A DNA stretch of 64,000 nucleotides from Blastocatellia bacterium (GCA_043736395.1 JAYTCQ010000174.1:4886-68885); one strand, 5' to 3'; shown: positions 23,003 through 49,803, numbered from the stretch's first letter. The notes: generated by a model from the sequence alone, not told the origin. Numbers and translations: made by a program.

Positions 23003-23005
23003 TTC

Positions 23006-31620: not shown

Positions 31621-32829
31621 TTATGAGGCGACTGAAAATTCCTTAACTCCTTCGGAAATATTTCTTTTGATTTTCTGCAATTCCGGCTGACAGGAAGCGG
31701 GTGCCACCTGACTTAAAAATTCCAGCATGCGACCGGCAAAAACCGGGTAAGAAAATTTTTCGGCATGCTGACGCAGTACACGTTGCGACCAACGATAATC
31801 TTCAAATTGCTCAATGGCTTCGGATAAAGATTGGCTGGTGGGATGCTTAAAAAATAATCCAGTCAAACCATCGGCAACGGTTTCCAGCGCTCCGCCTGCA
31901 CCGTAGGCAACCACGGGACGCCCAGCAGCATTGATCTCAAGTGGGGTCATCCCAAAATCTTCTTCACCGGGAAATAACAAAGCGCGGCAATGGCTGGCAT
32001 AATAATTCACGACGTCATCGGGCTGTCGCCCTAAGAATTTAACCGTCGGGCCAGCCATTGCTTCCAAGCGCTGCCGATCTGGACCATCGCCGATGACGAC
32101 CAATTCACGATTCATTTTCGTGCAGGCCTGAATCGCGAGGTCAATGCGTTTATAGGGAACGAGCCGTGACAAGATCAAAAAATAATCTTCCACGTGATTG
32201 CTGGGCTGGAATCGGCCTACGTCAATCGGAGGTGGAATCACGACCGATTCACGTTCATAAATTTGTTTGATTCGATCAGCCACTATTTGCGAGTTCGCGA
32301 TGTAATAATCCGGTTGACGCGCAGCGCGACGATCCCACGCACGTAATCCCGCGAGCATTGCAGGCAACACAGCCCGCGCCGCGCCGCTAAAGGCTTCACG
32401 TTCGGCATAATCGTCATACCGCCAAACCCATCGCATCGGAGTATGGCAATAACAAACATGCACCGCATTTTTCGCACGACGGACGCCTTTGCCATAGCCA
32501 GAACTGCTGCTGACAATTAGCTCATGTTCTGATAAATCCAGACTTTCGACAGCGAACGGATAGAGCCAAAAATACTGGCGGAATTTGCTTTCCACCGCTG
32601 GCATTTTCTGCATGAAGGAAGTGCGAATTTCTTTCGTGCGTAATCTTTCCGGCAAGCGATGCTCAAGCGCAACCGTCGCGTACATCGGAGCCGCTGGAAA
32701 GATTTGCGATAAGGCTTCCGCCACTTTTTCCGCTCCGCCCATCTGGACGAAATAATCATGTACTAAAGCTATTCGGGGCATCCTGAGTGATCCTTTTTTC
32801 GGTAGTAGTTCGTGTTTGCGATGCAACAC
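31621..32829 (-). CDS. GT4 family glycosyltransferase (start probably at the internal MPRIALVHDYF Met, ~32781)
   Basis: IALVHDYFVQMGGAEKV (GT4 N-terminal donor-binding start) and a C-terminal E..G...LE-type region (FGMTPLEINAAGRPVVAYGAGGALETV). Confidence 0.75.
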   Translation of the reverse strand: MLHRKHELLPKKGSLRMPRIALVHDYFVQMGGAEKVAEALSQIFPAAPMYATVALEHRLPERLRTKEIRTSFMQKMPAVESKFRQYFWLYPFAVESLDLSEHELIVSSSSGYGKGVRRAKNAVHVCYCHTPMRWVWRYDDYAEREAFSGAARAVLPAMLAGLRAWDRRAARQPDYYIANSQIVADRIKQIYERESVVIPPPIDVGRFQPSNHVEDYFLILSRLVPYKRIDLAIQACTKMNRELVVIGDGPDRQRLEAMAGPTVKFLGRQPDDVVNYYASHCRALLFPGEEDFGMTPLEINAAGRPVVAYGAGGALETVADGLTGLFFKHPTSQSLSEAIEQFEDYRWSQRVLRQHAEKFSYPVFAGRMLEFLSQVAPASCQPELQKIKRNISEGVKEFSVAS

Positions 32830-32859
32830 GAATCTGTTTTTTTATCTTTCAGGTTTAAG

Positions 32860-34158: not shown

Positions 34159-34213
34159 TCGTTTGGTAATAATTCAGTCAGCGCCTGATCTATGAGGCGC
34201 ATTATTTTAGTAA

Positions 34214-35440
34214 CTAAAAATTCGTTTTGCGGTATTGATCGGCTACCGCATTTAGTGACGGATTTATCAAATCCGATGAATTCGCCTGACGATAAAACTG
34301 TTCCAATTTCTGTTGATATGTCGCGACGGAAAACTCCCTGTATATTTGTTGGCGCGCTGCCGAGCCTAATCGTTTGCGTAACAATTTATCCTGACTCAAT
34401 TTGATGATCGCGGCGGCCAACGCCTCGTCATTGCTGACAGGCACCAGCCAGCCATTCAACGCGTGATGAATCATTTCTGGATTACCTCCCACTGCGGTGG
34501 CGATGACGGGCAACTCGCTTGCCATCCCTTCCAACACAACCAGCCCGCAAGGTTCCGCCAATGAATTCACTACTAATAAATCCAGTGCTTGCATCACCGC
34601 CGGAACATCACGCCGTCCGCCTAAAAAACGAACGGCTGCTGCAATTTCTAATTTTTCAGACATTTGTCTTAAGAGCTGAAAATACTTTTCATCAGAGGCA
34701 TTGAATTGTGGTTCGCCAACAATTAATAAAATTGCCTTGGGAAATTCTTGGACGACGCGCTTAAAAGCATGGAGCAATCCAAGCTGCCCTTTGCGCTCAG
34801 TGATTTGTCCGATGATCCCGATTACTGGTACGTCCCGATTAATTGCTAATTCGGAACGGATGCCGAAACGTTTTTTTTCATCAGGCTGAAACTTTTCCGT
34901 ATCAGCACAGTTAAGAATTGTTTTGATCGGAACGCGCTCATAAAACGGATGCAATAAAATTCCGCGAAATCTGTTGGCTGTCGCCTGTGAAACTGCTAAA
35001 AGTTTGATTCGTGACGAAGCCAGTAAAACAAAGAGCCGAATCGCAGTACTAATCGGATGATGCGGTAATAAATCATGCAGATGCCAAATGACAGGAACCT
35101 TTAATCCGACTGTTGCCGCTGTGATAACTAATCCGGCACGAATACTGTTGGCATGAATCAGATCAGGATTTATTGTTTTTATTTGTGAACGAACACTGCG
35201 CATGACGTGCCAAAACGAAATCAAATACTGCACCATTAGGTCTAATCGCCAGGTAAATCTTGCCTCCAGTTTTTTGACTTCAAGGCACGGGATTTTTTGT
35301 GCTTCAACTTGCCGTTTCAGGTCGCCAGCCGGACACATCACAATGCTCTGAAATTCAGAGTTAAGCTGCGATAAAATCAGTAAAAGCACCCGTTCTGCTC
35401 CACTGACGATATCCGTATGGTTGTAAAAAAGTATTTTCAT
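34214..35440 (-). CDS. GT4 family glycosyltransferase
   Basis: Start chosen at MKILFYNHTDIVSGAERV, the GT4 N-terminus. C-terminal retaining-GT motif EPCGLVVLEGMASELPVIATAVGGNPEMI (E..G....E.MA.G.PV). Confidence 0.75.
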   Translation of the reverse strand: MKILFYNHTDIVSGAERVLLLILSQLNSEFQSIVMCPAGDLKRQVEAQKIPCLEVKKLEARFTWRLDLMVQYLISFWHVMRSVRSQIKTINPDLIHANSIRAGLVITAATVGLKVPVIWHLHDLLPHHPISTAIRLFVLLASSRIKLLAVSQATANRFRGILLHPFYERVPIKTILNCADTEKFQPDEKKRFGIRSELAINRDVPVIGIIGQITERKGQLGLLHAFKRVVQEFPKAILLIVGEPQFNASDEKYFQLLRQMSEKLEIAAAVRFLGGRRDVPAVMQALDLLVVNSLAEPCGLVVLEGMASELPVIATAVGGNPEMIHHALNGWLVPVSNDEALAAAIIKLSQDKLLRKRLGSAARQQIYREFSVATYQQKLEQFYRQANSSDLINPSLNAVADQYRKTNF

Positions 35441-35456
35441 TTCCCTTTTATCTTTC

Positions 35457-36974
35457 TCAGAATTCATGTGATAGCTCACCTGCCAGTTGCTGTTCATCGC
35501 GCGCGGATTCTGAACAAATCCAACCAATCACCATCCAGGCGATAGGTGCGGCTGAATAAATCATAAAAGTCAGTCCGAAAATGCTATTCAGAATCAGCAT
35601 GGAGATGATCGCTGCTGCGATGCGACGCACTGTAGCTATGTGGCTTCCCGAGGCAGCGCTTTTAAAAATCCTTACTCCAATCCATTGAATTCGCACCAGA
35701 ATCCCAACAAATAACAATGCTACTGGAAGGCTACAGCCAACCAGCAGGACAACCACAAAACTGTCTATCGGGTAAAAATCGCTGGTAATACTCGTATAGC
35801 GGGCTGCTGCTACTGTTCCTGCACTAATTCCTGCACCCAGTGGATGAGCGGGAATATATTTGGTGATAAGTACTCCCCAGATTTTGAATCGCTCATCCAG
35901 GCTACCTTCTTTCGTTGGTTGTAAAGTTCCACGCGCTGTATGCGAAAGCATAGTTCCGAATTTATCGTCTTTATCTTTTTCCCACATTTCCTGCGCTGAT
36001 GGCGGCTTCGCAATCACTAGTAGAAGTACTAATGAAAGTCCCATCATCCCGCAACGTTTGATAACTCCGGTCCAATTTTCAGCCCCTACTAAAATAAAAA
36101 CTCCTACTCCGGCCACCAGCCCGAAAATTGCTGTTCGTTGTCCTGTAATAATAAGTACCGAGCTTAACCCTAGGAAACACATGACCCAGCCCAAACGCCG
36201 TACTAACTGTTTTGCTCCGAACGCAAAACCAAACGCAATCAAAGCACCAAATTGAACATACCGCCCCCATTCTTCCGCGCTATTGAAAGTTGCTAACGAG
36301 CGTTGAATATGGCCTACGGCAATGGATTCATAATGGTCTGTGTGATTTACCCAATACTGCTCAAAGCTGGGGAAACCAAAAACTAATTGGTAGGCTCCAT
36401 GCAAAGAACAAATCAATCCCATCACTACAATCAGGCGGAAAGCGGTGCTCAAAAAAGCTGGCTTCATCGCACGCCCGAAATAAAACCAGGCTACCGGCAA
36501 CAAAATGAAGAAGGCTCCCGACATGCCAACAAACACTCCACCCTGAAATGGATTGAAGATTTGAATAAAGAAGCATGCTGCCAGAATTGAAACGGGTAGC
36601 CCTAACGGCTTCGTCATGAAAATCTGTTCACGCCTCTTCCACAGTAGAATCGTAAAGGCCAAAACGGTTAGTAATGGCGTCACCAAATGAATGGGATCAG
36701 TAGTCGTGTATTCGACGAAAATGAACTGCGCGCGCCGCAAAAAACCACGCATCGGCTCAAAAATCAGCATTGCCAAAAGGCCTGCTTCAAGACTGGAGAG
36801 TAATGGCAATGCCATTAACCATAGTGCTCCGCTCAGCATCAGACTGCGTAATAAACCACCCCCACTAACAACAGCTAACGCCGTCGCGGCTGAGAGGGCA
36901 GGCAAAGGGCCCAGCCACATCAACCACGAACGGCGAAAAGCGGTTATCCTTGATTGTTCTTTGGCTCCAATCAT
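35457..36974 (-). CDS. O-antigen ligase / Wzy polymerase-like polytopic membrane protein
   Basis: 505 aa with >=10 hydrophobic helices. A large periplasmic-type loop (EMWEKDKDDKFGTMLSHTARGTLQPTKEGSLDERFKIWG) precedes the C-terminal helices, as in the Wzy_C/O-antigen ligase family. Assigned mainly by topology and context. Confidence 0.5.
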   Translation of the reverse strand: MIGAKEQSRITAFRRSWLMWLGPLPALSAATALAVVSGGGLLRSLMLSGALWLMALPLLSSLEAGLLAMLIFEPMRGFLRRAQFIFVEYTTTDPIHLVTPLLTVLAFTILLWKRREQIFMTKPLGLPVSILAACFFIQIFNPFQGGVFVGMSGAFFILLPVAWFYFGRAMKPAFLSTAFRLIVVMGLICSLHGAYQLVFGFPSFEQYWVNHTDHYESIAVGHIQRSLATFNSAEEWGRYVQFGALIAFGFAFGAKQLVRRLGWVMCFLGLSSVLIITGQRTAIFGLVAGVGVFILVGAENWTGVIKRCGMMGLSLVLLLVIAKPPSAQEMWEKDKDDKFGTMLSHTARGTLQPTKEGSLDERFKIWGVLITKYIPAHPLGAGISAGTVAAARYTSITSDFYPIDSFVVVLLVGCSLPVALLFVGILVRIQWIGVRIFKSAASGSHIATVRRIAAAIISMLILNSIFGLTFMIYSAAPIAWMVIGWICSESARDEQQLAGELSHEF

Positions 36975-36992
36975 TACATTTTCAACTCGGCC

Positions 36993-39900
36993 TTACTGCG
37001 AATAAAGCTGGCTTCTTGGAATTACCTCCCTCGCTTGATTCGGGCTTGACCATTCAAGTTTGACCGAAGCCGTTTTATCTTTTTCTACAAACTCCAATTT
37101 AATGGTGTATTTTTGCCCACCGTTGAGCGTGACAGCACCGCGACTTTCTGTCAGATCACTTCCGCTTCGGTTGATGATTAGTTGACCATTGATCCAAAGC
37201 CGCACTGTGTCTGCCGTCGTCACATAGAAAGTTTGCGTGCCTGAAAAACGAGGCTGGACAAAACCTGTCCACCTGATGGAAAAGTGGTCTTTGTCTAAGG
37301 CTGCATCGGGTTTTTCTTTGCCCCAATCGAAATCAATGAAGGGGTCAATGCGCGTCAACTTTAATTCTTTGAATTCTTCTTTCTTGAAATATTCTCCCTT
37401 CAATCCAGTTCCCGTTCCATTAACAGGCTTGATAACATTTACTTGAACCGCGCTTGAATTCGTGACCGCGCCGCTATTGTCATAAGCTCTCGCCGTAAAC
37501 GAATAGGCTCCAGCTGATCCCAGACTTACTGTATATTCATAAGGAGCGCTTTGATCCGAATTTATTAATGATCCGCCTTGATAAAATTCAACTTTACTAA
37601 TCGTACCGTCTGAATCCGATGCGTTTGCGCGCAGCGTGACAGCAGTCGGCGCAGTCACCGTTGCATTGTTGGCAGGCGCAGTCAGGGTGACTGTCGGAGG
37701 ACGATTTGCTGCGGTGGTATTTACCTTCACATTATCAATCACTGCCTTACATAGGACTGTGTTATTGGCAGCTGTCACAGCAATTCCAAATAAAACCGAG
37801 GACGGCATGTTTACTGTGACCGTCTCTATTAACAGCCAGTTCGTACCATCAGCCGATTGATACGTACTAAACTGATTGCCTCGTCGCACAATGCGTTGCC
37901 AACGCTGCAAAATTTGCGCATCTCCCAAGCTCGTGATCGTAGCCTCGCCAGGATTGGCGCGTCGTAAGGAGGCTGAATGCTCGTTCGATTTATACCGAAC
38001 CATGACATATCGTGAATTCGCCGCCAGACTCTCTCGAATCATGACACCGGCTTTGGCTTCGACTGCTGTGTTTTGAATGCTGGCAACACGCGCCACAATC
38101 TGCCCATCGCCTTGCAAAGTTTGATAGACATAATTGAAGCTGTCACTCGTCCCGCCAATATCCGTCCCGGAACCTTGCAAAGTGAAACTTCCATTGGAAA
38201 AACTATCAATTCCAACTTTTCCAACACTGCCGACATCCTTTCCTAGCCAGGGTACAGGCAATGTTGTAACGGGTGGCGGAGCGGAACTTTCAGGGATGAC
38301 GTTCACCCGTTTGGTGTCGGTCAATCCGGCACTATCAGTAACGGTCAGTACGATTTCATAAAAGAAGGTCTCACCCACTGAGCCATGATCTTCAACGACA
38401 AAACTGCCGCTGGTTCCGGTTGCCGTAACGCCGGGATGAATATGTTCATTGTGATGCAACAACACTGACCATTTCATGGCACTGGCAGGCAATGTCTCGT
38501 CGGCATCCGAAGCGGTTCCCGTGAACGTTAATTGCGTCCCGGTTTTGATGCGGGCATTGTTGGCGGGTGCGGTGATCGTGGCAACCGGCAGCCGCCCGCC
38601 AACCACTACGTCAATCGTGCTGATACCGGTAAGTCCTTGCGAGTTCGTAACAGTTAACTTCACAGAAAAAGTCTTAACGCCTGTCCCGCTGTAGGTATGT
38701 GTTGGGTTGGCAGTAGTCGAATTGGAACCATCGCCAAAATCCCATAGATAGGTTAAAGCGCTGCCATTGGGATCACTTGACCCAAGACTTGAAAACGCAA
38801 CGGTGTAAGGAGCAGACGGTGAAGGGCGCGAGGCCGTCGCATTCGCCGCTGGAGCTGAACCGCTGAAGCGAATACGTTTGATTTCGCCTGTTGCGATCGA
38901 CAGATAATACAAAGAACCATCTGGTCCTTGCTCGATATGCACAGGCGAATCCACACCTGTCGCAAGCGATTCCACGCTCGTAATATTATTGTTCGCATCA
39001 AACACAGCACGGCGAATGAAGCCTTGTACAAAATCACCAAAGAATAAATTATTGCGAAACTTGGTGGGATATTTTGTGCCCGTATAAAATGGCCCCATCA
39101 CGATGGATGACCCGCCATTCCAGGGATAACTATAGAGCGGCGGCGTCACGGAACTGGCCGGGATTTGGGCGCAACGTTGCGGAAATGCATTTTGGAAAGT
39201 GAATTGAGGATTCGGCCCTTCATAGCATGGCCAGCCAAAATTCGCGCCACGCCCGCGATTGATTTCTTCAAATTTTGCCGCCCCGACATCACCGATGTAG
39301 ACTTCACTGGTTCCGGGTTTGTTCGTGAAACGAAAGGGGCTGCGCAGTCCGTAGGCATAGACTTTCGACCGTACTGAGTTCGGATTGCCATCGTAAAATG
39401 GATTGTCACTCGGCGCAGTGCCATCGGGATTGATCCGCAGAATTTTGCCGTTGTAGTAATTTAAATCCTGAGAACGAAACGATTGTTCTGTCGCCGCGCT
39501 GAACGATGCGCCATCGCCCATTCCCACGTAAATTTTTCCATCCAACCCGAAGCGTACGGTGCCAACCGTATGAGCACCGGAGTCTGATCCCATACAATCA
39601 GAACCAACCGGAGAATTGCTGCAAGGCGGCGTACTGATCTTACCCATTAAAATAACTTCGCTATTCGCCTGTGCAAGATCAGGATTATTAAGATCAGCTT
39701 TCACACGTGTGAGCCGGGCGGTCTTAGCGCCAACACCAGGAGTTGCTCCGTCTTCGAAGGTATACAACAAATAAACAAATCCGTTCGTCGCAAAATTCGG
39801 ATCAAGTGCCAACCCAATCAGACCGCTGTCAACGCCCGAATAAACGCGCGCGCGAATGTCAAGAAAGGGAGTTGTTAACAACACACCATTTTTGACAATG

Positions 39901-40106
39901 CGAACGACTCCTGGCTTTTCCCATAAAAAGATTCTGCCGTCCGGTGCAAATGCAAAGCCGACGGTATTGAAGCGTGTTACCTGAGCAACGGTTTCCGTCG
40001 AAAACCCTGCATCCGTAAACGTCTGGGCGTAAATTCGCTCCCCCATGAAAACAAGCAACATTACCGCCACGCACAATGCAGTGGCTGGGGCTTTTCGTAG
40101 CTTCAT
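36993..40106 (-). CDS. giant secreted protein: N-terminal glucose/sorbosone-dehydrogenase-like beta-propeller, PKD/Ig-like domains, C-terminal PA14 domain
   Basis: Signal peptide. Propeller segments (GFAFAPDGRIFLWEKPGVVRIV, LIGLALDPNFATNGFVYLLYT, GPDGSLYYLS). PKD domain (LTYLWDFGDGSNSTTANPTHTYSGTGVKTFSVKLTVTNSQG). Further Ig-like repeats (VTLTAPANNATV). PA14-like C-terminus (GLKGEYFKKEEFKELKLTRIDPFIDFDWG..FSIRWTGFVQPRFSGTQTFYVTTADTVRLWINGQLII). Confidence 0.7.
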   Translation of the reverse strand: MKLRKAPATALCVAVMLLVFMGERIYAQTFTDAGFSTETVAQVTRFNTVGFAFAPDGRIFLWEKPGVVRIVKNGVLLTTPFLDIRARVYSGVDSGLIGLALDPNFATNGFVYLLYTFEDGATPGVGAKTARLTRVKADLNNPDLAQANSEVILMGKISTPPCSNSPVGSDCMGSDSGAHTVGTVRFGLDGKIYVGMGDGASFSAATEQSFRSQDLNYYNGKILRINPDGTAPSDNPFYDGNPNSVRSKVYAYGLRSPFRFTNKPGTSEVYIGDVGAAKFEEINRGRGANFGWPCYEGPNPQFTFQNAFPQRCAQIPASSVTPPLYSYPWNGGSSIVMGPFYTGTKYPTKFRNNLFFGDFVQGFIRRAVFDANNNITSVESLATGVDSPVHIEQGPDGSLYYLSIATGEIKRIRFSGSAPAANATASRPSPSAPYTVAFSSLGSSDPNGSALTYLWDFGDGSNSTTANPTHTYSGTGVKTFSVKLTVTNSQGLTGISTIDVVVGGRLPVATITAPANNARIKTGTQLTFTGTASDADETLPASAMKWSVLLHHNEHIHPGVTATGTSGSFVVEDHGSVGETFFYEIVLTVTDSAGLTDTKRVNVIPESSAPPPVTTLPVPWLGKDVGSVGKVGIDSFSNGSFTLQGSGTDIGGTSDSFNYVYQTLQGDGQIVARVASIQNTAVEAKAGVMIRESLAANSRYVMVRYKSNEHSASLRRANPGEATITSLGDAQILQRWQRIVRRGNQFSTYQSADGTNWLLIETVTVNMPSSVLFGIAVTAANNTVLCKAVIDNVKVNTTAANRPPTVTLTAPANNATVTAPTAVTLRANASDSDGTISKVEFYQGGSLINSDQSAPYEYTVSLGSAGAYSFTARAYDNSGAVTNSSAVQVNVIKPVNGTGTGLKGEYFKKEEFKELKLTRIDPFIDFDWGKEKPDAALDKDHFSIRWTGFVQPRFSGTQTFYVTTADTVRLWINGQLIINRSGSDLTESRGAVTLNGGQKYTIKLEFVEKDKTASVKLEWSSPNQAREVIPRSQLYSQ

Positions 40107-40237
40107 TTTTTCTCCTGTGTGTGAGTGCAGTATTTGTTGAGCGACCTGCCAGATCGCTTCTATATTTTTTCTAACTAAAATTGAAAGTTAGAATTTGTCA
40201 TCCGCTTCTGCACTTTTCGCGGACAATCAAAAACTTT

Positions 40238-41671
40238 TTAAGTAGCACCTCTTCCCGTCAAAACAGCAGGAATCGTGCGAAGTAAAATCCGAAAATCGAG
40301 TCCCAGCGACCAACGATCAATATATTCAAGATCAAGCAGCATCCATTCCTTAAAACTTAAATTGCTGCGACCGGAAACCTGCCATAAACACGTAATTCCC
40401 GGCTTGACACTGAAGCGTCTTTTTTGCCACGCAGCATTCAGTCCAAGCGCATCGCGCATCGAAAGCGGACGCGGCCCGACTAAGCTCATGTCTCCCAGCA
40501 CGACATTAATGAGCTGTGGTAATTCGTCTAAACTGGTTTTTCTGAGCCAGCGCCCTAAAGTTGTAATTCGGGGGTCGTACTTGATCTTGAAAATCGGGCC
40601 TTCTTTTTCATTGAGGTGCTCAATCTCCTGCATCCGCGCTTCTGCGTCTACCACCATTGTGCGGAATTTGAAGAGTTGAAAACGACGCTTGTTATATCCC
40701 ATCCGTTCTTGAATAAAGAAGACCGGCCCCTTCGAATCCAATTTGATGGCAATCGCAATCAGCGCAAATAATGGAGCGCATGGAATCAATAAAAATAGTG
40801 CTGCCAGCAGGTCAAAGATTCGTTTGGCTTCCGTTCTCCATCCCAGCGCCGGAGTGGAATGTAAGGAGATAAAATTCATTCCCTGCAACCGCGCCGGACG
40901 CGAAAAAGCGAGTTGCTGCGGAAATAAATCTGACAGCAAATGTGTCGTGATTCCCTGCTCTTCCAGTTGCAGAATAGCGTCTTCGATTTGGGCATATTGA
41001 GATTTTATGGGGAGCGCGAGGACGACTTCATCTACGACTTCGGTGGCAATGATTCCGGTCAAATCTTCAAGCTTGCCAATTCTGCGGAGTTCTGGAAGTG
41101 ACGTATTGATTTCATGATCATCTAAATATCCAAGGACGCGATAACCAAGATCAGGACGCTTCATCAGGCGCTCGACAAATTGCTGTCCGCGTGGGCCGCC
41201 TCCGATCAATAATAAATTTTTGGTGTTATGCCCGCGCCGCCGAAACGAGCGAAAAACGTATTGCTGAATCAGCCTGAAGGCGCAAATGAACACAAAACCA
41301 ACGAGCGCGAACATCCCCGTAACAATCACGGTAACTGTCGGCCAATTACCAACCTGTGCCACGATCAGCAAAGCCGTGGCGCACCAGAAAACCGACAAGG
41401 CAATTTCCATGACTTCTTCGGCTAAAAGATGCAATCGAGTTAATAAATATAGCCCACGGATATTGAACGCCTGATGCCAGATCAATAACAAAAGTCCGAT
41501 CAGGATAGCGTTGGTGACTTTGACACGATCCGTCACGAAGGTGATACCGTAATCAACGTAATCCTGGTTGGAGTAATTTAAGGCGATGGTTAGGCCGAGT
41601 GCTGTGACTAACAACACCAAATCCATAAGCTGAAGGTACAGCAAATAAAGCTTTCGATACGGGGCGGGCAT
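40238..41671 (-). CDS. undecaprenyl-phosphate sugar phosphotransferase (exopolysaccharide priming transferase, WcaJ/EpsB/CpsE-like)
   Basis: N-terminal TM helices. Central NAD-binding-like CoA_binding region (LLLIGGGPRG). C-terminal bacterial sugar transferase domain (DELPQLINVVLGDMSLVGPRP..KPGITCLWQVSGRS). Confidence 0.85.
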   Translation of the reverse strand: MPAPYRKLYLLYLQLMDLVLLVTALGLTIALNYSNQDYVDYGITFVTDRVKVTNAILIGLLLLIWHQAFNIRGLYLLTRLHLLAEEVMEIALSVFWCATALLIVAQVGNWPTVTVIVTGMFALVGFVFICAFRLIQQYVFRSFRRRGHNTKNLLLIGGGPRGQQFVERLMKRPDLGYRVLGYLDDHEINTSLPELRRIGKLEDLTGIIATEVVDEVVLALPIKSQYAQIEDAILQLEEQGITTHLLSDLFPQQLAFSRPARLQGMNFISLHSTPALGWRTEAKRIFDLLAALFLLIPCAPLFALIAIAIKLDSKGPVFFIQERMGYNKRRFQLFKFRTMVVDAEARMQEIEHLNEKEGPIFKIKYDPRITTLGRWLRKTSLDELPQLINVVLGDMSLVGPRPLSMRDALGLNAAWQKRRFSVKPGITCLWQVSGRSNLSFKEWMLLDLEYIDRWSLGLDFRILLRTIPAVLTGRGAT

Positions 41672-41699
41672 AATTTTTTCCAGTAGTATTGGGTGGTCG

Positions 41700-41795
41700 G
41701 TGGTTGGTGGTCAGTAGTCGGTAGAAGGCAGTTGTTTCAAGAACTCTGCCAACCGAACACCGACCACTGATCACCGACCACCGCTTTAGCTCAGA
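41700..41795. repeat. long imperfect inverted repeat (GGTGGTCGG-type units) in the intercistronic gap of the minus-strand EPS operon
   Basis: gggtggtcggtggttggtggtcagtagtcggtagaaggcag .. ctctgccaaccgaacaccgaccactgatcaccgaccaccgc form two ~40-nt arms. About 30/40 positions are complementary around a ttgtttcaagaa loop. It lies between the PCP gene stop and the sugar-transferase start. Confidence 0.5.
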
Positions 41796-41797
41796 CT

Positions 41798-43312
41798 TTA
41801 ATTACTAACCCGGGTAACCAGTCTTGAGACCTTATTTATTGAAACAATCGGCTGGTTTACACGAGCCGTGGGTTGAAAATATTCGACCGTAAAGGCTGTT
41901 ACCAGTCCAAGAATCAATCCGCCAATTAATCCCAGAATCAAATTGAGCGGAACATTTGGACTCGTTGCTTTAAAGGGAACACTCGCTGGTTCTGCGACCC
42001 TCACGTTGATAATTCCTTCTTTATCGAGGGCGGCGGAAACTCGGCTTTCTTCCCCTTTTTTGGAGTACAACTGATAGGACTGATCTGCCAACTCCCGTTC
42101 GCGATCCAGACGCCGCTGGGCATATCCCTGCACTCCTAATTCACGCACCTTGACCTTCGCCTGAGCCACGGTCCCGATCAGCGCTTTTTCTTTCTCTCGC
42201 AGTGACGCCAACGCGCTACGCTCGGTTGTTAAGGTGTCATTCAAACGCTGACGCAACGGATTCAGGGCAGAAGTTGTTGTTGACTCAGCGGGGGCTTTCT
42301 CTACTGCTTCGATCATCCGACGGGCTTTTTCGATGTCTTTTTCGAGATCAAGAATTAACCGATGCTGGGGCTTATATTTTCCCAGCAGCTCTGAACGTCG
42401 CAGTTCTAAAGTGAACAATTGCGCCCGAATGGCATCAGGAGCTGTTCGATGTGAAATGCGTTCTTCACTCTTCAAGCGTTCAGGTTCATTCGCCAATTGT
42501 TGTTCTAAAGATGAAATGCGGGCTTCGCTTTCAACGATTCCAGTGCGCGTGCTTTCCAGAGCGACTTCGAATTCGTTGAGCTGGCGCATCTGTGTCTCGA
42601 TTTGCTGATTGAGTAACTGTGGATTTGGTAGCGGACTGATTCGTTTTAATTCGGCTTCTTTTTCGTTCAGCGCAGCACGCATCGTTTCCGCTTGCTCCAC
42701 AAAGAAATTTGTAGCTCCGATATTTTCACGCAGTTTAATATGGCGTTCCTGATACAAATCACACAGGGTGTTCACAACTAATGCCGCCTGTTCACGGTTG
42801 TTAGCCTTGTAAGTAATTTTGATGAGATTTGATTTCTTCCCTGGCTCAATCGTTAAATTTTCCTGAAGCTTCGCAAGTGCTAAAGAACTGGCTGTCAGCT
42901 TTTCATCCGCCGGGTCTTTATCGAAGGCAGCGAAGACTGTGCTGCTGCTTTTAGATCCGAAACCTTTATCCAGATGTAGTCGCTTCACAACTTCTGCTTG
43001 TAGTGACGGGCTATTAATAATTTCAACTTCAGAATTCACATCTTCTTCGGTCATTCGCGTATCAGGATGCCCTGTCGCAATAATTTGCTCCGGTGTCACA
43101 GGCGCATCAAAACGTTCTTTCATCACCAAAATAGAAGCTGAAGAACTGTAGATAGGTTTCGTGAACCACGTACCAACCGCAGTTAAGGTAAAAGTCAAAA
43201 TTGCAGCCCCCAGAATCAACCATTTGCGTGCCCAGAGAATATTTCTAAGGTCACGCAAAAGATTTTCTGAATCTAACCAACTGTCTGGTTGTTTTCCTAA
43301 ATGAATACTCAT
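41798..43312 (-). CDS. polysaccharide co-polymerase (PCP/Wzz/GumC family) chain-length determinant
   Basis: N-terminal TM (WLILGAAILTFTLTAVGTWF). Wzz-like periplasmic region with long coiled coils (LNEKEAELKR.., QLANEPERLKSEE..). C-terminal TM (LILGLIGGLILGLVTAF). The 4-bp start/stop overlap with the next gene suggests co-translation. Confidence 0.75.
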   Translation of the reverse strand: MSIHLGKQPDSWLDSENLLRDLRNILWARKWLILGAAILTFTLTAVGTWFTKPIYSSSASILVMKERFDAPVTPEQIIATGHPDTRMTEEDVNSEVEIINSPSLQAEVVKRLHLDKGFGSKSSSTVFAAFDKDPADEKLTASSLALAKLQENLTIEPGKKSNLIKITYKANNREQAALVVNTLCDLYQERHIKLRENIGATNFFVEQAETMRAALNEKEAELKRISPLPNPQLLNQQIETQMRQLNEFEVALESTRTGIVESEARISSLEQQLANEPERLKSEERISHRTAPDAIRAQLFTLELRRSELLGKYKPQHRLILDLEKDIEKARRMIEAVEKAPAESTTTSALNPLRQRLNDTLTTERSALASLREKEKALIGTVAQAKVKVRELGVQGYAQRRLDRERELADQSYQLYSKKGEESRVSAALDKEGIINVRVAEPASVPFKATSPNVPLNLILGLIGGLILGLVTAFTVEYFQPTARVNQPIVSINKVSRLVTRVSN

Positions 43313-44373
43313 GTAATAACCGCTATGAAATTCATCAATCCACGCATCCGCGATTTGACTACAGAAAGAGGTGAAGGAGTAGAACGCGCTTTATTGAGCG
43401 TGACGCCCAGCACATTTGCCTGAGCGCTCCGCAATCTCTGCTGTGCTTCGCCCAGGCTGGCAAACGAAGTAACATTTTCAGTCGCCACGAGAATAACGCC
43501 GTCCACCGCGCCCGCTAATAAGGCTACTTCTGGATGACTGCTGACAGCCGGAGCATAAATCACCACCAAATCAAACATTTTCTCAAGCTCGCTTAATACC
43601 ACTGACGGAGTCCAGTTTTTCAACCAATCGTCAAGCTTGACTGCGCCCAGCGAAGAGGCAATCTCGTAAAGATTTTGTGTTCTTGTTCGTTTGATTCGAA
43701 ACGAATAATCATCTGATAAAACTTTATTTCGGTGTGTTAATGCGCTGGTTTCCGCGACTTCGAGATATGCAATTTTTAATCGCTTATATTCCGAAATTAA
43801 TTGGCTCAGATCAGCCGCTATTGGTTGGGCGCTGACTTCTGGCGCGGCTCCACAAATTAAAACTGAACGAAGCTTTCTTTGCTCTGCTTCAACCATGATG
43901 GTCGCCCGCAATTTCAACAATTGTTCGCGTGCCTCCGGCGACAAAGGCGATGGCTCTGGAGCATCAGCCTGACGAGGAACCGCCAGTTCATTGAATATCC
44001 GGCTGGCGGCTGAAGCTGCATTTTGGCTGGTGCTTTTCACTTGTGAAACTTGTTTCGGAAGAGTTGAATAATTAGCCCGGGTAGGCGATCTTTTCACAGT
44101 CTGTGAAACAATCGAAGTCGGTATGATTTGGCGCGCTTCAGGTTTCAAATTTCCTAAAACCTCAACTAACTCGTCAATTTCCGAAACGGGAAAAGTCTGC
44201 TGCCGCCGCACAGGAAGTACCTTGTTCCACTCCTGCGGTGAAACAGTAATCACTTCCCAATCTCCGGTCACAAAACCATTTTTACGCGCTGATTGTGCGA
44301 CGTTCCGGTGTGATGTATTGGTTGTCACTTGCCACATATTTTTTCTCTTTTCCGGTGCAAAAAACGAATGCAA
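43309..44373 (-). CDS. BY-kinase (Wzc/CpsD cytoplasmic ATPase)-like protein with degenerate Walker A (likely pseudo-kinase)
   Basis: The C-terminal half aligns to the BY-kinase P-loop domain. VLICGAAPEVSAQPIAADLSQLIS is where the G..GKT/S Walker A should be, and the Lys/Thr are absent. Walker A'-like DGVILVAT and Walker B-like DLVVIYAPAV are present. No C-terminal Tyr cluster. Confidence 0.45.
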   Translation of the reverse strand: MHSFFAPEKRKNMWQVTTNTSHRNVAQSARKNGFVTGDWEVITVSPQEWNKVLPVRRQQTFPVSEIDELVEVLGNLKPEARQIIPTSIVSQTVKRSPTRANYSTLPKQVSQVKSTSQNAASAASRIFNELAVPRQADAPEPSPLSPEAREQLLKLRATIMVEAEQRKLRSVLICGAAPEVSAQPIAADLSQLISEYKRLKIAYLEVAETSALTHRNKVLSDDYSFRIKRTRTQNLYEIASSLGAVKLDDWLKNWTPSVVLSELEKMFDLVVIYAPAVSSHPEVALLAGAVDGVILVATENVTSFASLGEAQQRLRSAQANVLGVTLNKARSTPSPLSVVKSRMRGLMNFIAVIT

Positions 44374-44407
44374 ATTTGTTGAATGTCGGACGATTTTTCT
44401 AAATCAC

Positions 44408-45868
44408 CTACGCTTTGATTTCCAATTTCACTTCTCGTGGCGCAGGTAACCTAGCTAATACTGCCAACCCCAAACGGCGGTGCAAGCCTTCTTCACTACA
44501 AACACGGGGATGAAAAGTTTCCGCAATTAATACGCTGCCAAGCGAGGTCCCCAGGCCTGCCAACAAAAGTAAAATCAAATTCTGTGACCAGTTAGGACTA
44601 ACCGGGTAACGCGCAATACTGGCGCCTTCCATTAAAATGACCTGCGTCAATTTTGACTTCTTAACAATGGCTTCAATTTCCGCTTCCTGCGCTTTCTGAC
44701 GGTATAAATCTACAGCTTCCTGATTGAGGAGACGCTCACGTTCAAGGCTCTCTTTTTTGACCCCTGCCTGGTTTAGGTTATTCACACGCGACTGATAGGT
44801 ATTCACCAGCTCACGAAGTCTCGCTTCACGCTCAACCAAAACTGCCAGCGAAGTCTCAGCTTTGAAGAGATCATCCGCGAGACGACGACGCGTCTGATTA
44901 ATCGCAAAAGAACGCTCACGCGGAGGGTTCTGTTCTTCCTTGGCAATCAACTCTTTGGATTTGGCAATGCGCTGATCCATGTCGCGAATCAACCGATGCT
45001 GGGGCTGATATTTTTGCAGCAACTGTGTGCGTTGCATTTCAAACGCCACCAGTTCTTCTTTCATTTTGTCCAATGCCTGCACGTATTTCGTTGAGGAGCC
45101 AACTTCCAGTTGTTCCGGTTCAGAAGCCAGTTGAGATTTCAGCGCATTGATTTGCTTCTGTGCCTCGCGCCTTTCGATGTCTGCCGCTTCCGCTTGTTTT
45201 TGAAGTTCGTAATATTGCTTTAAGACAAGCTCTTTTTGAGAAGCGTTCCCGTTTAATTCAGGTGTTGCCTCAACGCGCTTTAATGCGGTCGTTGCCGCAT
45301 CTAATTTCTGATTAAAAACTTCTGCTCGCTCACTCAACGCGGCTTTCGCATTCACTGGATTTATCGGCTGGCTCAGGCGTTCACGCTCCTTCAGATATTC
45401 AGCAAAAAACAGTTGCAAAACGCGTGCTGCTCGTTCAGGATTTTCATCGCGATAAGTAACTCTGATCACATTCGAACGATTGATTTCTTCCACCAAAAAT
45501 CGTGACGCAAATTGTTGCAGCGAATGCTCATCATTGCTCCCCTTCTGCTGTGCCACAGTCATCAGTAATTCCTGATTTTTCAGAAGTTCAATTTCGGAAG
45601 CGATTTGATTGGTTGCGGTTGCTTTGGAACCGTTCCCAGCAGAAATAGTTTCTGGACTGACCAGAATTTTTATCGAAGATTCGTATAAAGACACCATTTG
45701 GAACATCACCCCAATACCGCTCAGAACAATCAAACTAAATAGTGCAAGTGCCAGCTTTTTGCGCATCCAGATCACAGCACAAAATTCACGCCAAAGCGCT
45801 GACATTGAATTTAGATTGATAGAATTACTAAGCGACATAAGAGCCTTATAAATGAATTCACCGGGCAA
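44408..45868 (-). CDS. second PCP/GumC-like polysaccharide co-polymerase paralogue
   Basis: N-terminal TM (LALALFSLIVLSGIGVMF), an extensive coiled-coil periplasmic region and a C-terminal TM (LILLLLAGLGTSLGSVLIAETF). Same architecture as 41798..43312. The true start may be the internal MSALWREF Met. Confidence 0.65.
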   Translation of the reverse strand: MPGEFIYKALMSLSNSINLNSMSALWREFCAVIWMRKKLALALFSLIVLSGIGVMFQMVSLYESSIKILVSPETISAGNGSKATATNQIASEIELLKNQELLMTVAQQKGSNDEHSLQQFASRFLVEEINRSNVIRVTYRDENPERAARVLQLFFAEYLKERERLSQPINPVNAKAALSERAEVFNQKLDAATTALKRVEATPELNGNASQKELVLKQYYELQKQAEAADIERREAQKQINALKSQLASEPEQLEVGSSTKYVQALDKMKEELVAFEMQRTQLLQKYQPQHRLIRDMDQRIAKSKELIAKEEQNPPRERSFAINQTRRRLADDLFKAETSLAVLVEREARLRELVNTYQSRVNNLNQAGVKKESLERERLLNQEAVDLYRQKAQEAEIEAIVKKSKLTQVILMEGASIARYPVSPNWSQNLILLLLAGLGTSLGSVLIAETFHPRVCSEEGLHRRLGLAVLARLPAPREVKLEIKA

Positions 45869-46459
45869 AATTATAAACGCCTATAGACCTCTTAAATTCA
45901 GGAACTGCCTTGGCAAAATAATGTTTGATTGCACAGCCAGGAAAGAAAACCCTTTTGGGAAAGGGAAAAATGATGACTAGGGTGGTAAGAAACGATGGCA
46001 AGCTAATACGAAATAAATAACAACACCTGCCTCAAAGCTAAGGAGAAAAAATTCATCCTGACATGGGGAACTTTAGAGAAACGCAAATCGAAATTGCTTT
46101 CGCTCACCTGGCTTATTTGCTTAAAGGTATCGCTACTTGACGGTATGCATTAACCAGCATTGGACGATCTGCCACCGGGACTTAGGCTGAGCAACCAGAT
46201 GCTAATGATGTATTACTTAACGGGGTACCTCCTATCTAAAAACTATTCTCTAACCATCAGGCAACGCTTCAGAAGTACACATAGCTTTTTCGGTAAAAAC
46301 TGAGAACTACCTGACAAAAAATGTTGAATTATCCACACGTTTACAAATTGGTATTATCAATCTGCGTGCCATCCTTAACGGGAATTACGGCGACTGAGAT
46401 AACCGCTGTATTGATAATACTTATCCTCCCTAACTACCTGCTCCAATAATTGTTACCGC

Positions 46460-46476
46460 AAACACTAAGTGGCAAC
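46460..46476 (-). promoter_or_regulatory. perfectly palindromic sigma-54 -24/-12-type element (TGGCAA-N5-TTGCCA), read identically on both strands
   Basis: tggcaactttattgcca gives GG and GC at the canonical 10-nt spacing on both strands. It lies between the EPS operon start (45868) and the stop of the sigma-54 activator gene (46606). A second weaker element occurs on the minus strand (TGGCACgcagaTTGAt, rc of 46353-46371). Confidence 0.45.
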
Positions 46477-46605
46477 TTTATTGCCAGCTAACACTGCCAT
46501 TGCAACGATTCACCCTATAAACAAAGGCTATATTTCACTGGACATACAGTTGCCACTTGCATATTTTTTCAAATTCGACTTCTTCAAATTTTCCAGGAAG
46601 ATTAA

Positions 46606-49560
46606 TTAAGCGATTTTGGATTGTGGGAGCAGATGATGTCGGCGCAGCATTTTTCGTAGACCATATCGTGAAACGCCTAATTCGACTGCGACTCTGGAGA
46701 TATTTCCTTTATGTCGATTCAATGCTTCACTAATAACTTGATGCTCTGTATCCGCCACGGCTTCCGCCAATGAATGTTTATGTGAGGAAAAAGAAAACGA
46801 TGAGATGAGCCGGATTTCCGAGTGACTACGAATATTCGGCGAGAGCAGTTCTTCTGTAATCATTGTGCCTGCCGGAGTCAACGCCACTAATCTTTGCATC
46901 TCATTTTCCAGTTGCCGGGCATTTCCAGGCCAATCGTATTGTTTAAGTACTGACAAGGCATTCGACGAAAGAGAAATATCCTGTTTCTCTGATTGCACAA
47001 GATTGCGCGCCAGAAAATGTTCTGCCAGTAATGAAATTTCTTCGCGACGCTCTCGCAACGGAGGCATCCGAAATTCAATCACATTCAGCCGATAATAAAG
47101 ATCAGCGCGAAATTCATGACGGGTCACCATTTCTTCTAAATCACAATTCGTTGCTGCCAGGATGCGCACATCTACAATCCTTGGCGAAGCTTCGCCAATT
47201 CTTTGGACTTCCCCGTTTTGAAAAAATCTCAGTAATTTTGGCTGCATCTCGCGCGTCAGTTCACCTATTTCATCCAGGAATAATGTTCCCTTCTCGGCGG
47301 CTCCGATCATCCCCGGAAAATCCGCAGTAGCTCCGGTAAATGATCCGCGACGATGCCCGAAAAGTTGAGACTCAATTAGCTCACGAGGCGCAGAGGCACA
47401 ATTAAAAGGAATGAATGAATGTGCCGCGCGTTTGCTATACGCATGAATCGCACGTGCGACTAATTCTTTTCCCGTTCCGGTTTCGCCTGTAATTAAAACG
47501 GTGATTTCGCTACTGCGCAAACTCAGCACCTGCGCAACAATTTTTTTCATGACTTCGCTGCGATAGACCAAACCAGGTAATGAAATTTGATTCGCTTCAG
47601 CCGCGAAAGAAGGGGTCGTAAGCAATGGATGTTTACGCATATGGGAACTGCGTTCAAATCCGGCTCTGAACTGTTTTAATAAGAGTTCCAGTAAAGAATC
47701 CGGCAACGGCGCCTTTTGTCTTCCTAAGTATATAAATTTAATTTCACTCTGTTCTGAAAATGAATAAAGCTTTGCATCTCTTAAATCAATTTCGCTTTTC
47801 ATTAAGCGCTGGCTCAACTCAGAGGCAAAAGCTTCGGTGCAACCACAATAGATAGAAGGTTCCAGTATTTCGTTAGTTTCTTTGAAAAAAATGACCGGCG
47901 AGATTTGTAATTCTTCAAATAAAATACGAGCCATTTCACGCAATAATACTTCTGCTGAGAAATCCGCATCCAGCAATCGGGTAATTACGGAAATGACCTG
48001 ATCTGTGATACCAAACTTTTTTGAATTTGCGGTGGGGGCCGTATGTAAGCTCTTAGAAAATGATTGGACACGCTCCAACATTGGCTGCGCCTCTAGTTCT
48101 TCAAAGATATTTTTAGCTGTTTTCAGGGACTGACTGGCGAGCGCGAATTCCCCGCGTTGGGACTGAGCTTCAGCAAGATAATAATTGGCAACTCCTAATC
48201 GGTAACGGTCTCCCATGACTTGTCGAATTGAAATCGCCTGATTAAAACACCCCGTAGCTTCAGTTGCCTGATTCATTGCTACGTGTACAGAACCAGAAAC
48301 TTCGCGTAACTGCCCCATCAGACTATTAGTTTCTATTCGCTCAATTTCTTCTTTGATTGATTTCAGAAGCTCATAGGCGGCAGAAATTTCTCCCAGCGCT
48401 AAATGTGCTTCTATCAGACAAAGCTGTGCGGCGGCACTTCCGCGCGGGTCTCCCATCCGTTCACAAATTTGTAAACTTTCATGAAAGGACTCGGTCGCCT
48501 TCTGCACATCGCCTGCTAATAACCGGCCCCGCCCTTGCACTAGCAATGCCACGGCATAATTAAACCCAACTTTCAGTGCTCTTAATGATTCCAGGCTTTC
48601 TGCTATTAATTGTTCGGCTTTTTCAAAGTGCCCCTTGAGATAATGTAAGTCCGCAAGTGTTTCCAGTGAAGTAGCCACAACCAGAGTCGCTTCACAATGC
48701 CGGGCTCTGGATAGCGATTCATTTAAAGCTTCTTCAGCTCGTCGCAGTTCTCCCAGCCGTAAGAGGCTATAACCCAAATTTGAGTACGCATTAATAATCA
48801 ATCTTGGATTGCGCGCGCGTTCAAGTGATGGCAAGGCTCGCTCAATTAAAATAACGCTTTCCTGCATCTGACCTTGCAATGAAGCAATCGCCGCCAAATT
48901 AATATCCGTACTGCCTTGCATCAAGGGATCATCAATCGTGCTTAAAGCTTCGAGAGCTTGATGAAATGATTGCTTTGCTTGATCAAATTCACCTTCCAGA
49001 AAATAAACAATTCCGATTCCGTTATAAGCCTGGGCTAGAAATAATTGCTGGCTCCGATTCTGATTTTCGTCTATCACTTTTGAGAAATGGTCGCGCGCAA
49101 ACCATAGTTCACCCAAACGCCGATACAGGGTCCCAAGCAAAATCTGCCCTTTGACTTTGACCTGCGCATTATTTTCTTCCTGTGATAAAGCGATGGATTG
49201 TTTGGCGTAAGCAATTGCCTTTGGTAAATCGGTGGCTCCGTAAGCCGAACCAAGTCGGTAGCAAATTTCGCTTTGGGCAAGGAGTGAAACGGCTCGGCGG
49301 TGGCGATCATCTTCATAGCCAGTCAGGACAGCCAGCGCCTTGGAAAATTGAGCTAAACTTTCCAGCGCCTCAGCTAAAAGACAACGTATCAAGGCTTCTG
49401 ATTCAGGGCGTAAGCTGGAAGATTTAAGCGCGAGTTCACAATGAGAAACGGTCTCTTCATATAAAAAACTGTGCATCGCAGAACGCGCCTGGCTGACGCA
49501 TTTTCCCCAACCGGGTGTGCGCGCTAAAGCTGATTTTTTGTCACTTCGAGAGTCTGCCAT
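46606..49560 (-). CDS. sigma-54-dependent transcriptional activator (bEBP) with N-terminal TPR array and GAF-like domain instead of a receiver; C-terminal Fis-type HTH
   Basis: AAA+ sigma-54 interaction domain with Walker A GETGTGKELVARAIH, the GAFTGA-equivalent GSFTGA, ESQLFGH and Walker B LFLDEIGEL. C-terminal HTH RHKGNISRVAVELGVSRYGLRKMLRR. The N-terminal ~600 aa contain many TPR-like helical repeats (e.g. AQAYNGIGIVYFLEGEFDQAKQSFHQALE). Confidence 0.85.
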   Translation of the reverse strand: MADSRSDKKSALARTPGWGKCVSQARSAMHSFLYEETVSHCELALKSSSLRPESEALIRCLLAEALESLAQFSKALAVLTGYEDDRHRRAVSLLAQSEICYRLGSAYGATDLPKAIAYAKQSIALSQEENNAQVKVKGQILLGTLYRRLGELWFARDHFSKVIDENQNRSQQLFLAQAYNGIGIVYFLEGEFDQAKQSFHQALEALSTIDDPLMQGSTDINLAAIASLQGQMQESVILIERALPSLERARNPRLIINAYSNLGYSLLRLGELRRAEEALNESLSRARHCEATLVVATSLETLADLHYLKGHFEKAEQLIAESLESLRALKVGFNYAVALLVQGRGRLLAGDVQKATESFHESLQICERMGDPRGSAAAQLCLIEAHLALGEISAAYELLKSIKEEIERIETNSLMGQLREVSGSVHVAMNQATEATGCFNQAISIRQVMGDRYRLGVANYYLAEAQSQRGEFALASQSLKTAKNIFEELEAQPMLERVQSFSKSLHTAPTANSKKFGITDQVISVITRLLDADFSAEVLLREMARILFEELQISPVIFFKETNEILEPSIYCGCTEAFASELSQRLMKSEIDLRDAKLYSFSEQSEIKFIYLGRQKAPLPDSLLELLLKQFRAGFERSSHMRKHPLLTTPSFAAEANQISLPGLVYRSEVMKKIVAQVLSLRSSEITVLITGETGTGKELVARAIHAYSKRAAHSFIPFNCASAPRELIESQLFGHRRGSFTGATADFPGMIGAAEKGTLFLDEIGELTREMQPKLLRFFQNGEVQRIGEASPRIVDVRILAATNCDLEEMVTRHEFRADLYYRLNVIEFRMPPLRERREEISLLAEHFLARNLVQSEKQDISLSSNALSVLKQYDWPGNARQLENEMQRLVALTPAGTMITEELLSPNIRSHSEIRLISSFSFSSHKHSLAEAVADTEHQVISEALNRHKGNISRVAVELGVSRYGLRKMLRRHHLLPQSKIA

Positions 49561-49803
49561 AAATCCTGGTTCCTACCTAAATCAACTCAAAAATGAAAGA
49601 TCGCCCCTGTTACTACCCACTAAAGGTTCACTGTGATGGGGCTATGACAAGTAATATTTTCAATCGCCATATTTATTTAGGAGATTCGTCACAAATCAGA
49701 AAAAATCAGACATTTTTTTCTAATCTCTGCAACTTCTACTCAATTGAACATTTCTATCGGATGAGGCTCTGTGGTCTTTGGGTAATACTTTGCGAACCCC
49801 TAC

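Follow-up and report, generated by a model that had tools for sequence, protein, structure and literature searches.

Proposed enhancer and promoter roles for a palindrome and a TGGCAC element between a TPR-containing sigma-54 activator gene and an exopolysaccharide/NRPS operon in Blastocatellia

Between the gene for a sigma-54 activator (bacterial enhancer-binding protein, bEBP) and a long string of exopolysaccharide (EPS) and nonribosomal peptide synthetase (NRPS) genes, a 64,000-nt stretch of DNA from an uncultured Blastocatellia (Acidobacteriota) bacterium (GCA_043736395.1, JAYTCQ010000174.1:4886-68885; here called the window) holds two short elements that each resemble a sigma-54 promoter: a perfect palindrome, TGGCAA-N5-TTGCCA, and an asymmetric TGGCAC-N5-TTGA (Table 1). 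Which of them would start transcription of the EPS/NRPS genes? The original prediction, drawn from the window's sequence, chose the palindrome, and listed a second minus-strand match ~100 bp away. We find that second match as TGGCACGCAGATTGAT, 115 nt from the palindrome, and conclude from comparison of related loci that it is the likely sigma-54 promoter; the palindrome is most likely an enhancer (upstream activating sequence, UAS) of the adjacent activator. The idea of a sigma-54 switch for the EPS operon is thus partly supported, with the enhancer and promoter roles exchanged.

The palindrome is as perfect as described, although it lies 10 nt from the 46460-46476 first given for it, and it does fit TGGCA-N6-TTGC on both strands. 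That pattern occurs four times in the window against 1.4 expected, a count reached by 7 of 100 shuffles and therefore not significant alone; TGGCAACTTTATTGCCA itself is present in a single copy within the window. We collected ~32 non-redundant related loci (a metagenome scan gave only three, two of them duplicates) and scanned 41 loci for exact palindromes; all 15 that were found lay inside the regulatory interval. There are one to three palindromes of the TGGCAA-N5-TTGCCA type per locus, the first two spaced by 21 nt and the third a further ~70 nt away, at positions of about -207/-186/-115 or -230/-209/-137 relative to TGGCAC, and the last of them is 114-138 nt upstream of a TGGCAC-N5-TTGN in related loci. 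The window's degenerate copy occupies the "site 2" position (-184 to -209) of other loci. Across orthologs the palindromes drift, either to half-sites or to forms that have lost GG/GC (CGGCAAC, TGAAAAC, TGACAAC). Two loci with an extra S8 peptidase gene behind the activator (L008, L010) keep both palindromes and promoter with the EPS genes, and in two others (L035, L017) the palindromes overlap or abut the activator stop codon, which fits a DNA site and not an RNA element. Because these sites are multi-copy, symmetric, helically phased, paralog-specific and 115-230 nt upstream of a -24/-12 element, we read them as most likely the enhancer of the adjacent activator.

In 27 loci that -24/-12 element, TGGCAC-N5-TTGN, follows the activator gene in the right orientation, and TGGCACGCAGATTGAT is identical in the three closest relatives. 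The logo of the 27 sites reads T27 G27 G27 C26 A27 C27, R (G/A), N4, T27 T24 G27, (T12 A10 C5), T20; the TGGCAC at -24 (GG) is perfect in the window and invariant or nearly so in the homologous sites. The chance density of the 9-base TGGCAC/TTG pattern is ~0.6 per 64 kb, both strands counted.

A possible objection is that the palindromes are bound by a different regulator, either a repressor or a second activator, and that the adjacent activator acts from solution or from other sites. Some sigma-54 activators do act without specific DNA binding, and binding of this one to the palindromes is itself a prediction from sequence. However, its helix-turn-helix (HTH) domain, HTH_8, is intact, the site geometry is typical of activator enhancers, and the type of palindrome changes with the paralog: TGTCAAC-N3-GTTGACA in L037 and L032, TGGTAAG-N3-CTTACCA in L023 and GCAAACA-N3-TGTTTGC in L026, all with TGGCAC-N5-TTGN kept downstream. 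The two loci of the TGTCAA type, which belong to different subfamilies, have the recognition helix GL[H/Y]KML instead of GLRKM; in each subfamily, then, G to T in the site goes together with R to H/Y in the helix. We consider a different regulator unlikely.

We find it distinctly improbable that the palindrome itself is the promoter, perhaps a bidirectional one with a ~600-nt leader, and TGGCACGCAGATTGAT secondary or non-functional. The palindrome does have GG and GC correctly spaced on both strands, and the TGGCAC element lacks the -12 C. But both palindrome halves are kept symmetric, in two or three copies per locus that are 21 and ~70 nt apart; ortholog copies decay or lose GG/GC while TGGCAC stays invariant; and paralog palindromes such as GCAAACA-N3-TGTTTGC and TGTCAAC-N3-GTTGACA have no GG/GC, with TGGCAC-N5-TTGN nevertheless kept. 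Multi-copy, symmetric, paralog-specific sites 114-230 nt upstream of a conserved asymmetric element argue against this part of the original prediction, and we do not retain it.

Still less credence goes to an ordinary sigma-70 promoter driving the operon, with the sigma-54-like elements irrelevant: the region does have two sigma-70-like matches, of which one overlaps the palindrome, but they come at shuffle frequency (2 vs 2.5 expected) and were not seen to be conserved, whereas TGGCAC is kept in ~27 loci, always beside a sigma-54 activator gene. Least probable of all is that the palindrome is an RNA hairpin terminating or stabilising the activator transcript (a role that could coexist with the enhancer role), for although a scan lists it as terminator-like (seven pairs, tail CTTAGTGTTT) and it follows the activator stop codon by 120 nt, the stem is short and weak and lacks a real U tract, conservation falls on the bases of the arms and not, as expected of a hairpin, on their pairing, and the several copies per locus overlap or abut the coding end in L035 and L017 and follow another gene in L008 and L010.

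As a separate observation, GGGCAACTCGCTTGCCA (minus strand TGGCAAGCGAGTTGC) at 34508-34524, inside the glycosyltransferase gene 34214-35527, is one mismatch from the enhancer palindrome; this may be chance.

What would lie between the TGGCACGCAGATTGAT promoter and the first operon gene? The original prediction had a leader of ~600 nt, which the exchange of roles shortens to ~505 nt from the predicted start; the gene call of the ortholog and its alignment place the probable start codon of the first gene at ATG 45838 and not at TTG 45868. Of 16 related loci measured, 15 have leaders of 430-580 nt; in L019 the leader measures 815 nt. A conserved core begins ~160-270 nt (mostly 160-200) downstream of TGGCAC; our covariance model of it, R1, has one match in the window (76.9 bits) and scores 66-87 bits in 13 other loci; a further match of 41.7 bits lies in L027, upstream of a GSDH-PA14 gene that neighbours a paralogous activator. 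Two long-range helices are predicted by RNAalifold from 11 leaders aligned by sequence only. Helix H1 pairs GCTRGTTAATRC with GTRTTAGCTYGC, and its 3' arm in the window is also a conserved leader block; H2 pairs AAACTAC/GTAGTTT, with the variants GAATCGC/GCGATTC, AGGCCAC/GTGGTTT and AAGTAGC/GTTATTT. These pairs are 96% paired, compared with 25-43% in slid controls, and have nine double-change cells, a number reached by 0 of 500 shuffles, although kinship among the sequences means that such shuffle statistics overstate the support, which is supportive and not conclusive. In L027, a natural deletion variant, the H2 arms form the compensatory pair AAACCAC/GTGGTTT across a loop of just 11 nt, where other leaders have ~150 nt. 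The bases GCUA/G belong both to the 3' strand of the core hairpin and to the 5' arm of H1, so that core hairpin and H1 would exclude each other, which hints that the leader could act as a switch.

Two other explanations of the leader were considered. A leader peptide translated after AGGAGGT was rejected, because start codons are mostly missing there, frames disagree and the core has 1-2-nt indels; no conserved leader open reading frame was found in the related loci. A terminator or attenuator is suggested in the window by CCCTTTCCCAAAAGGG and a T-run at 45942-45965, but is not supported, with no consistent terminator across 16 loci. Rfam (45000-50500, E<=1) returned no relevant family for the leader, only a chance-level STnc390 match (E 0.63) inside the first gene, and the literature searched held no description of a leader RNA of this kind.

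Leaders elsewhere in the family have features of their own. The promoter TGGCACGCAAATTGTT (~1417-1432, minus strand) and a shortened leader RNA (1188-1252, minus strand) of L027 stand before a GSDH-PKD-PA14 gene which shares 80% identity with the window gene 36993-40106 and is divergent from a frameshifted paralogous activator. After the promoter of L023 (~8150-8330), the leader has two copies of a ~30-nt motif, AGTGCCGGGGGATTGGGCCGCAAGGCTTAAGG and AGTGCCAGGGGGATTTAGCCGCAAGGCTTATGG, which may be another RNA element. Two GC-rich hairpin-forming copies, ATGACAGGCGGCTCGCCTGTC and ATGACAGGCGAGCCGCCTGTC, lie at ~8140-8215 in L026 between the promoter and a Ro/TROVE-like gene.

Several observations weigh against the assignment of palindromes as enhancer, TGGCAC-N5-TTGA as promoter and ~505 nt as leader. 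The window's palindromes number just two, one of them degenerate; the perfect one itself meets the sigma-54 consensus, so that sigma-54 might bind it; and the covariation of HTH and site is drawn from few lineages. No rpoN gene was seen in scans that covered the window alone. The core hairpin pairs are nearly invariant (two double changes), too conserved to show covariation, and the leader, taken whole, has an ordinary fold energy (z = -0.9). The -12 dinucleotide of the proposed promoter is GA, not the canonical GC, so that with correct spacing it departs from one consensus feature, and C stands at -12 in only 5 of the 27 homologous promoters. The base there is T or A in the other 22, and standard GG-N10-GC scans miss such promoters. 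The pspA promoter of Escherichia coli, a textbook sigma-54/PspF-dependent promoter, likewise has a non-C -12, TTGT, when read from the K-12 genome record (TGGCACGCAAATTGTAT). Since this is so, we do not take a non-C -12 as disqualifying; by this analogy it is compatible with function, yet a real departure from consensus. With these points counted, we hold the three-part assignment to be probable.

On its minus strand the locus would then be a sigma-54 control region of the classical type that depends on an enhancer. The activator, made from its own gene, would bind through its HTH to the TGGCAA-N5-TTGCCA sites just downstream of that gene, the perfect and the degenerate one. Release of the AAA+ domain by the sensory half would allow assembly on the sites, looping to sigma-54 RNA polymerase at TGGCACGCAGATTGAT and ATP-driven opening of the promoter. 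Transcription would run from the predicted start through the leader, whose core and long-range helices would probably form a second, RNA-level checkpoint, before reaching the polysaccharide/NRPS genes; this one promoter may drive all ~31 kb of them, as the original prediction had it.

Table 1. Features of the control region and its neighbours (positions counted from the first nucleotide of the window)
Feature	Position	Strand	Basis or remark
17 co-directional genes (EPS/NRPS)	14922..45838	-	Pfam/NCBIfam, gene gaps
5' leader, ~505 nt, predicted start ~46345 to ATG 45838	45839..46345	-	
3' arms of long-range helices: H2 46015-46021 GTTATTT, H1 45998-46009 GTATTAGCTTGC	45998..46021	-	RNAalifold
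5' arms of long-range helices: H1 46147-46158 GCTGGTTAATGC, H2 46132-46138 AAGTAGC	46132..46158	-	RNAalifold
Conserved leader core, ~75 nt, TAGCA..TGG..GCC-N11-GGC..CCA..TGCTGGTTAATGC	46138..46211	-	covariance model R1
Nearly invariant AGGAGGT in leader	46227..46233	-	no start codon after it in most loci
Conserved leader block ACCGAAAAAGC	46284-46294	-	
Proposed sigma-54 promoter TGGCACGCAGATTGAT, -24 TGGCAC (46366-46371), -12 TTGA	46356..46371	-	predicted start ~46345
Perfect palindrome TGGCAA-N5-TTGCCA, TGGCAACTTTATTGCCA, "site 3"/proposed UAS	46470..46486		115 nt upstream of promoter
Degenerate putative enhancer site TGGCAACTGTATGTCCA (minus strand), 2 mismatches to TGGCAA-N5-TTGCCA	46539..46555		184 nt upstream of promoter
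Sigma-54 activator (bEBP), 984 aa	46606..49560	-	Pfam domain search
Activator layout: TPR solenoid aa ~30-500, GAF-like fold ~513-643, AAA+ 665-829, AAA lid, HTH 935-974			
GAF-like sensory module, aa ~513-643, directly N-terminal to AAA+	47632..48024	-	AlphaFold2 + Foldseek
Weak TGGGTA-N5-TTGC match TGGGTAATACTTTGC	49779..49793	+	judged chance
Secreted S8 subtilase, signal peptide, C-terminal GVTFADG repeats	49828-51726	+	divergent to activator
Wza-type polysaccharide export protein	51770-52480	+	divergent, after S8

The protein to which this role is assigned is confirmed as a receiver-less sigma-54 activator with TPR, AAA+ and Fis-type HTH domains, as had been proposed from its motifs. Pfam places Sigma54_activat (PF00158) on its AAA+ domain with E 6e-64 (215 bits against a cut-off of 20), followed by AAA_lid and the Fis-type HTH_8, with many TPR matches ahead of them (TPR_MalT at E 1e-23), and finds no receiver domain (Response_reg) in the 984 aa. 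The motifs GETGTGKELVARAIH, GSFTGA and ESQLFGH can all be read in the translation, as can the Walker A sequence GETGTGKE; GSFTGA, the sigma-54 contact loop, is one conservative substitution from GAFTGA. NCBIfam matches are confined to the C-terminal third (aa ~650-977), and every score is under its family cut-off. NorR is the top match to the AAA+/HTH half (319 bits against 476, aa 660-975 only), and the PrsR model TIGR02915 reaches 299 bits against 503 (aa 657-977 only); with that score and no receiver, we rejected the protein as an NtrC-type response regulator or a PrsR member. PADLOC gave only generic RtcR/PspF-like AAA+ and subtilase/IetS likeness, with no sign of a defence system.

The GAF-like part of the sensory half, as originally predicted, is plausible at the level of fold and does not show in sequence searches. 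No Pfam family matches aa ~505-660 at E<=10, nor does a 24-sequence profile of the GAF-like region find any PDB chain at E<=10. The AlphaFold2 model of aa 507-663, built from a 24-sequence alignment, has a pLDDT of 75.4 and the topology a-a-b-b-a-b-b-a; its top 50 Foldseek matches in the PDB are almost all GAF domains, including those of the sigma-54 activators NifA, Nlh1 and Nlh2, although these matches are weak (best E 2e-3, TM 0.45-0.55). "GAF-like" is therefore a reasonable label for the modelled fold, with family membership unproven. By analogy with NorR and NifA, the ~480-aa TPR solenoid would supply the input and the module would probably gate the AAA+ domain.

Searching with the sensory half (aa 1-655) found ~57 full-length proteins of the same architecture, orthologs and paralogs, with up to three paralogous activators per bin. 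The named relatives are all from Acidobacteria/Blastocatellia metagenome bins except two metagenome-assembled genomes titled Heliobacteriaceae. These two bins (L011 and L024, "uncultured Heliobacteriaceae") carry an otherwise Blastocatellia-only locus, and are probably mislabelled or mis-binned. The literature searched contained no description of a TPR-containing sigma-54 activator or of sigma-54 control of EPS in Acidobacteria.

Among known systems, the E. coli norVW region offers a close parallel, with three inverted-repeat enhancer sites upstream of a sigma-54 promoter (PMC2831303, PMC2941729). The window's activator is like NorR in having a putative GAF-type module directly N-terminal to AAA+, no receiver and a proposed enhancer array before a proposed sigma-54 promoter. 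It differs from NorR in the ~480-aa TPR solenoid ahead of this module, in a GAF-like part without sequence similarity to known GAF domains, in its putative sites (TGGCAA-N5-TTGCCA vs GT-N7-AC) and in its proposed target, an EPS/NRPS operon; moreover the sites lie downstream of the activator's own gene and not in a divergent intergenic region. The promoter, with its perfect -24 and non-C -12, is closer to pspA, whose TGGCACGCAAATTGTAT is almost identical to several promoters of this family, such as TGGCACGCAAATTGTT in L027, although PspF has no sensory domain, is controlled by PspA and serves an unrelated biology. By analogy, the locus may have a pspA-like promoter driven from several upstream sites by an activator of the NorR/NifA GAF type. 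Exopolysaccharide loci are also served by other sigma-54 activators, among them PrsR (PEP-CTERM-box response regulator) (Haft 2006, PMC1569441; Francke 2011, PMC3162934), and sigma-54 often controls cell-exterior functions (PMC3162934, PMC1569441). Like PrsR and those activators, the one described here is encoded beside an EPS locus with Wzz, Wza and priming-transferase genes that resemble XrtA-system families; unlike PrsR, it has no receiver domain.

For the sensory half and the leader, other comparisons apply. MalT binds maltotriose, and Rap, NprR and PlcR bind imported peptides; like these MalT/RRNPP sensors, the activator fuses a cytoplasmic TPR superhelix (matched by TPR_MalT) to a transcription output, which is however an AAA+ sigma-54 activator and not a STAND ATPase/LuxR or plain HTH. 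The secreted protease gene next door recalls the maturation of RRNPP peptide signals, by analogy only, and unlike in RRNPP systems no ligand, peptide gene or importer was identified at the window locus. The EAR RNA of Bacillales and JUMPstart/ops-RfaH of Proteobacteria are leader elements of polysaccharide operons, and here too a long conserved untranslated leader would precede a very long polysaccharide operon. Its invariant TAGC-containing blocks recall ops (GGCGGTAGC), whereas its sequence is different, it has long-range helices and it has no Rfam match; no NusG paralog was seen in scans of the window.

That a receiver-less TPR + GAF-like activator stands directly upstream of the EPS/NRPS genes, with a sigma-54-type promoter and a long leader in between, is borne out by many Blastocatellia loci in which both the arrangement and the promoter and leader are kept. 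The gene order S8 (divergent), activator, long gap, Wzz-like, kinase-like, Wzz, Bac_transf, GSDH-PA14 holds down to ~40% sensor identity, and the gap between activator and Wzz-like gene is 760-870 nt in the closest relatives. In the window, the 17-gene string, with intergenic gaps of <=131 nt, encodes two Wzz-type chain-length proteins, a kinase-like protein, a priming sugar transferase, GSDH-PKD-PA14 and Wzy-like proteins, glycosyltransferases, a flippase, NRPS modules and a phosphopantetheinyl transferase (PPTase). All matches of these EPS genes to XrtA-system models are under cut-off, and general scans showed no exosortase or PrsK among the window genes. From 15731 to 31603 the polysaccharide genes run unbroken into NRPS genes (A-T-TE, C-A-T-TE, A-T-C-A-T), and this same stretch has a PAP2 phosphatase, an NHL/SGL propeller, a Laminin_G/metallophosphatase protein and the PPTase; NRPS inside an EPS operon is unusual.

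Other paralogous activators precede sigma-54-type promoters in front of different genes (L020/L022 ~8236-8985, L026 8237-9805, L030 7286-8857, L032 7628-10243, L023 8354-9244). Read by eye from translations, the products behind these promoters are a LuxR-type response regulator, a Ro/TROVE-like protein, an NRPS condensation-domain protein and a FliR/EscT-like membrane protein. As paralogs front non-EPS genes, the TPR activator family therefore appears not to be EPS-specific.

On the other side of the activator, 25 of the 30 loci that could be assessed have the S8 subtilase as divergent neighbour (the window and L001, L003-L006, L008, L012-L022, L024-L026, L031, L035, L037 and L040), including paralogs with 36-47% sensor identity and other target operons. 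Extra S8 copies stand downstream of the activator in L008 and L010, and L017 has a tandem S8 pair. The C-terminus of the window's S8 peptidase (51560-51726) has repeated GVTFADG motifs, GVTFADGNTMADG...GVTFADGIAFPSGVTFADG. This recurrence as divergent neighbour suggests that protease and activator are a functional pair. One could extend the idea to a signalling pair in recurring paralogous cassettes, in which the protease makes or matures an extracellular (peptide) cue, the TPR part senses it in RRNPP-like fashion and the activator switches the sigma-54 promoters of different operons, among them EPS/NRPS, an NRPS gene, a Ro/TROVE gene and a LuxR-type regulator, the EPS leader RNA being a second checkpoint, riboswitch-like or by antitermination; we regard this extended scheme as doubtful.

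The weaker match that the original prediction placed before the S8 start is present at its position, and we find no role for it. Its pattern occurs 21 times in the window against 13 expected, and the three closest relatives (L003, L001 and L006, sensor region 77-87% identical) have unrelated sequence where TGGGTAATACTTTGC stands in the window; at chance-level frequency and without conservation, we rejected it as part of the system. The conserved S8 start codon is ATG 49828, and comparison of the relatives shows neither a sigma-54 site nor a TGGCAA palindrome conserved between the S8 and activator genes. Blocks AATATTTTCAATCGCCATATTTATT, ATCTCTGCAACTTC and ATTGAACATTTC at 49620-49760 are kept down to relatives of ~54%; none of them resembles a sigma-54 site, and they may serve the S8 and activator genes as ordinary promoters or operators.

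Soils are rich in Acidobacteria, which are hard to culture, and next to nothing is known about how their matrix polysaccharide and secondary-metabolite clusters are controlled. One result here is a sensor architecture of TPR and a cryptic GAF-like module, absent from the reviews and papers searched. The lineage's sigma-54-type promoters mostly lack the canonical -12 C, so promoter-scanning matrices should allow for a non-C there; the symmetric TGGCAA-N5-TTGCCA proposed as enhancer, conversely, mimics the sigma-54 consensus and misleads pattern scans. The leader is a candidate new cis-regulatory RNA with covariation support, and the proposed regulatory map of enhancers, promoter, start and leader would be transferable to ~30 related loci.

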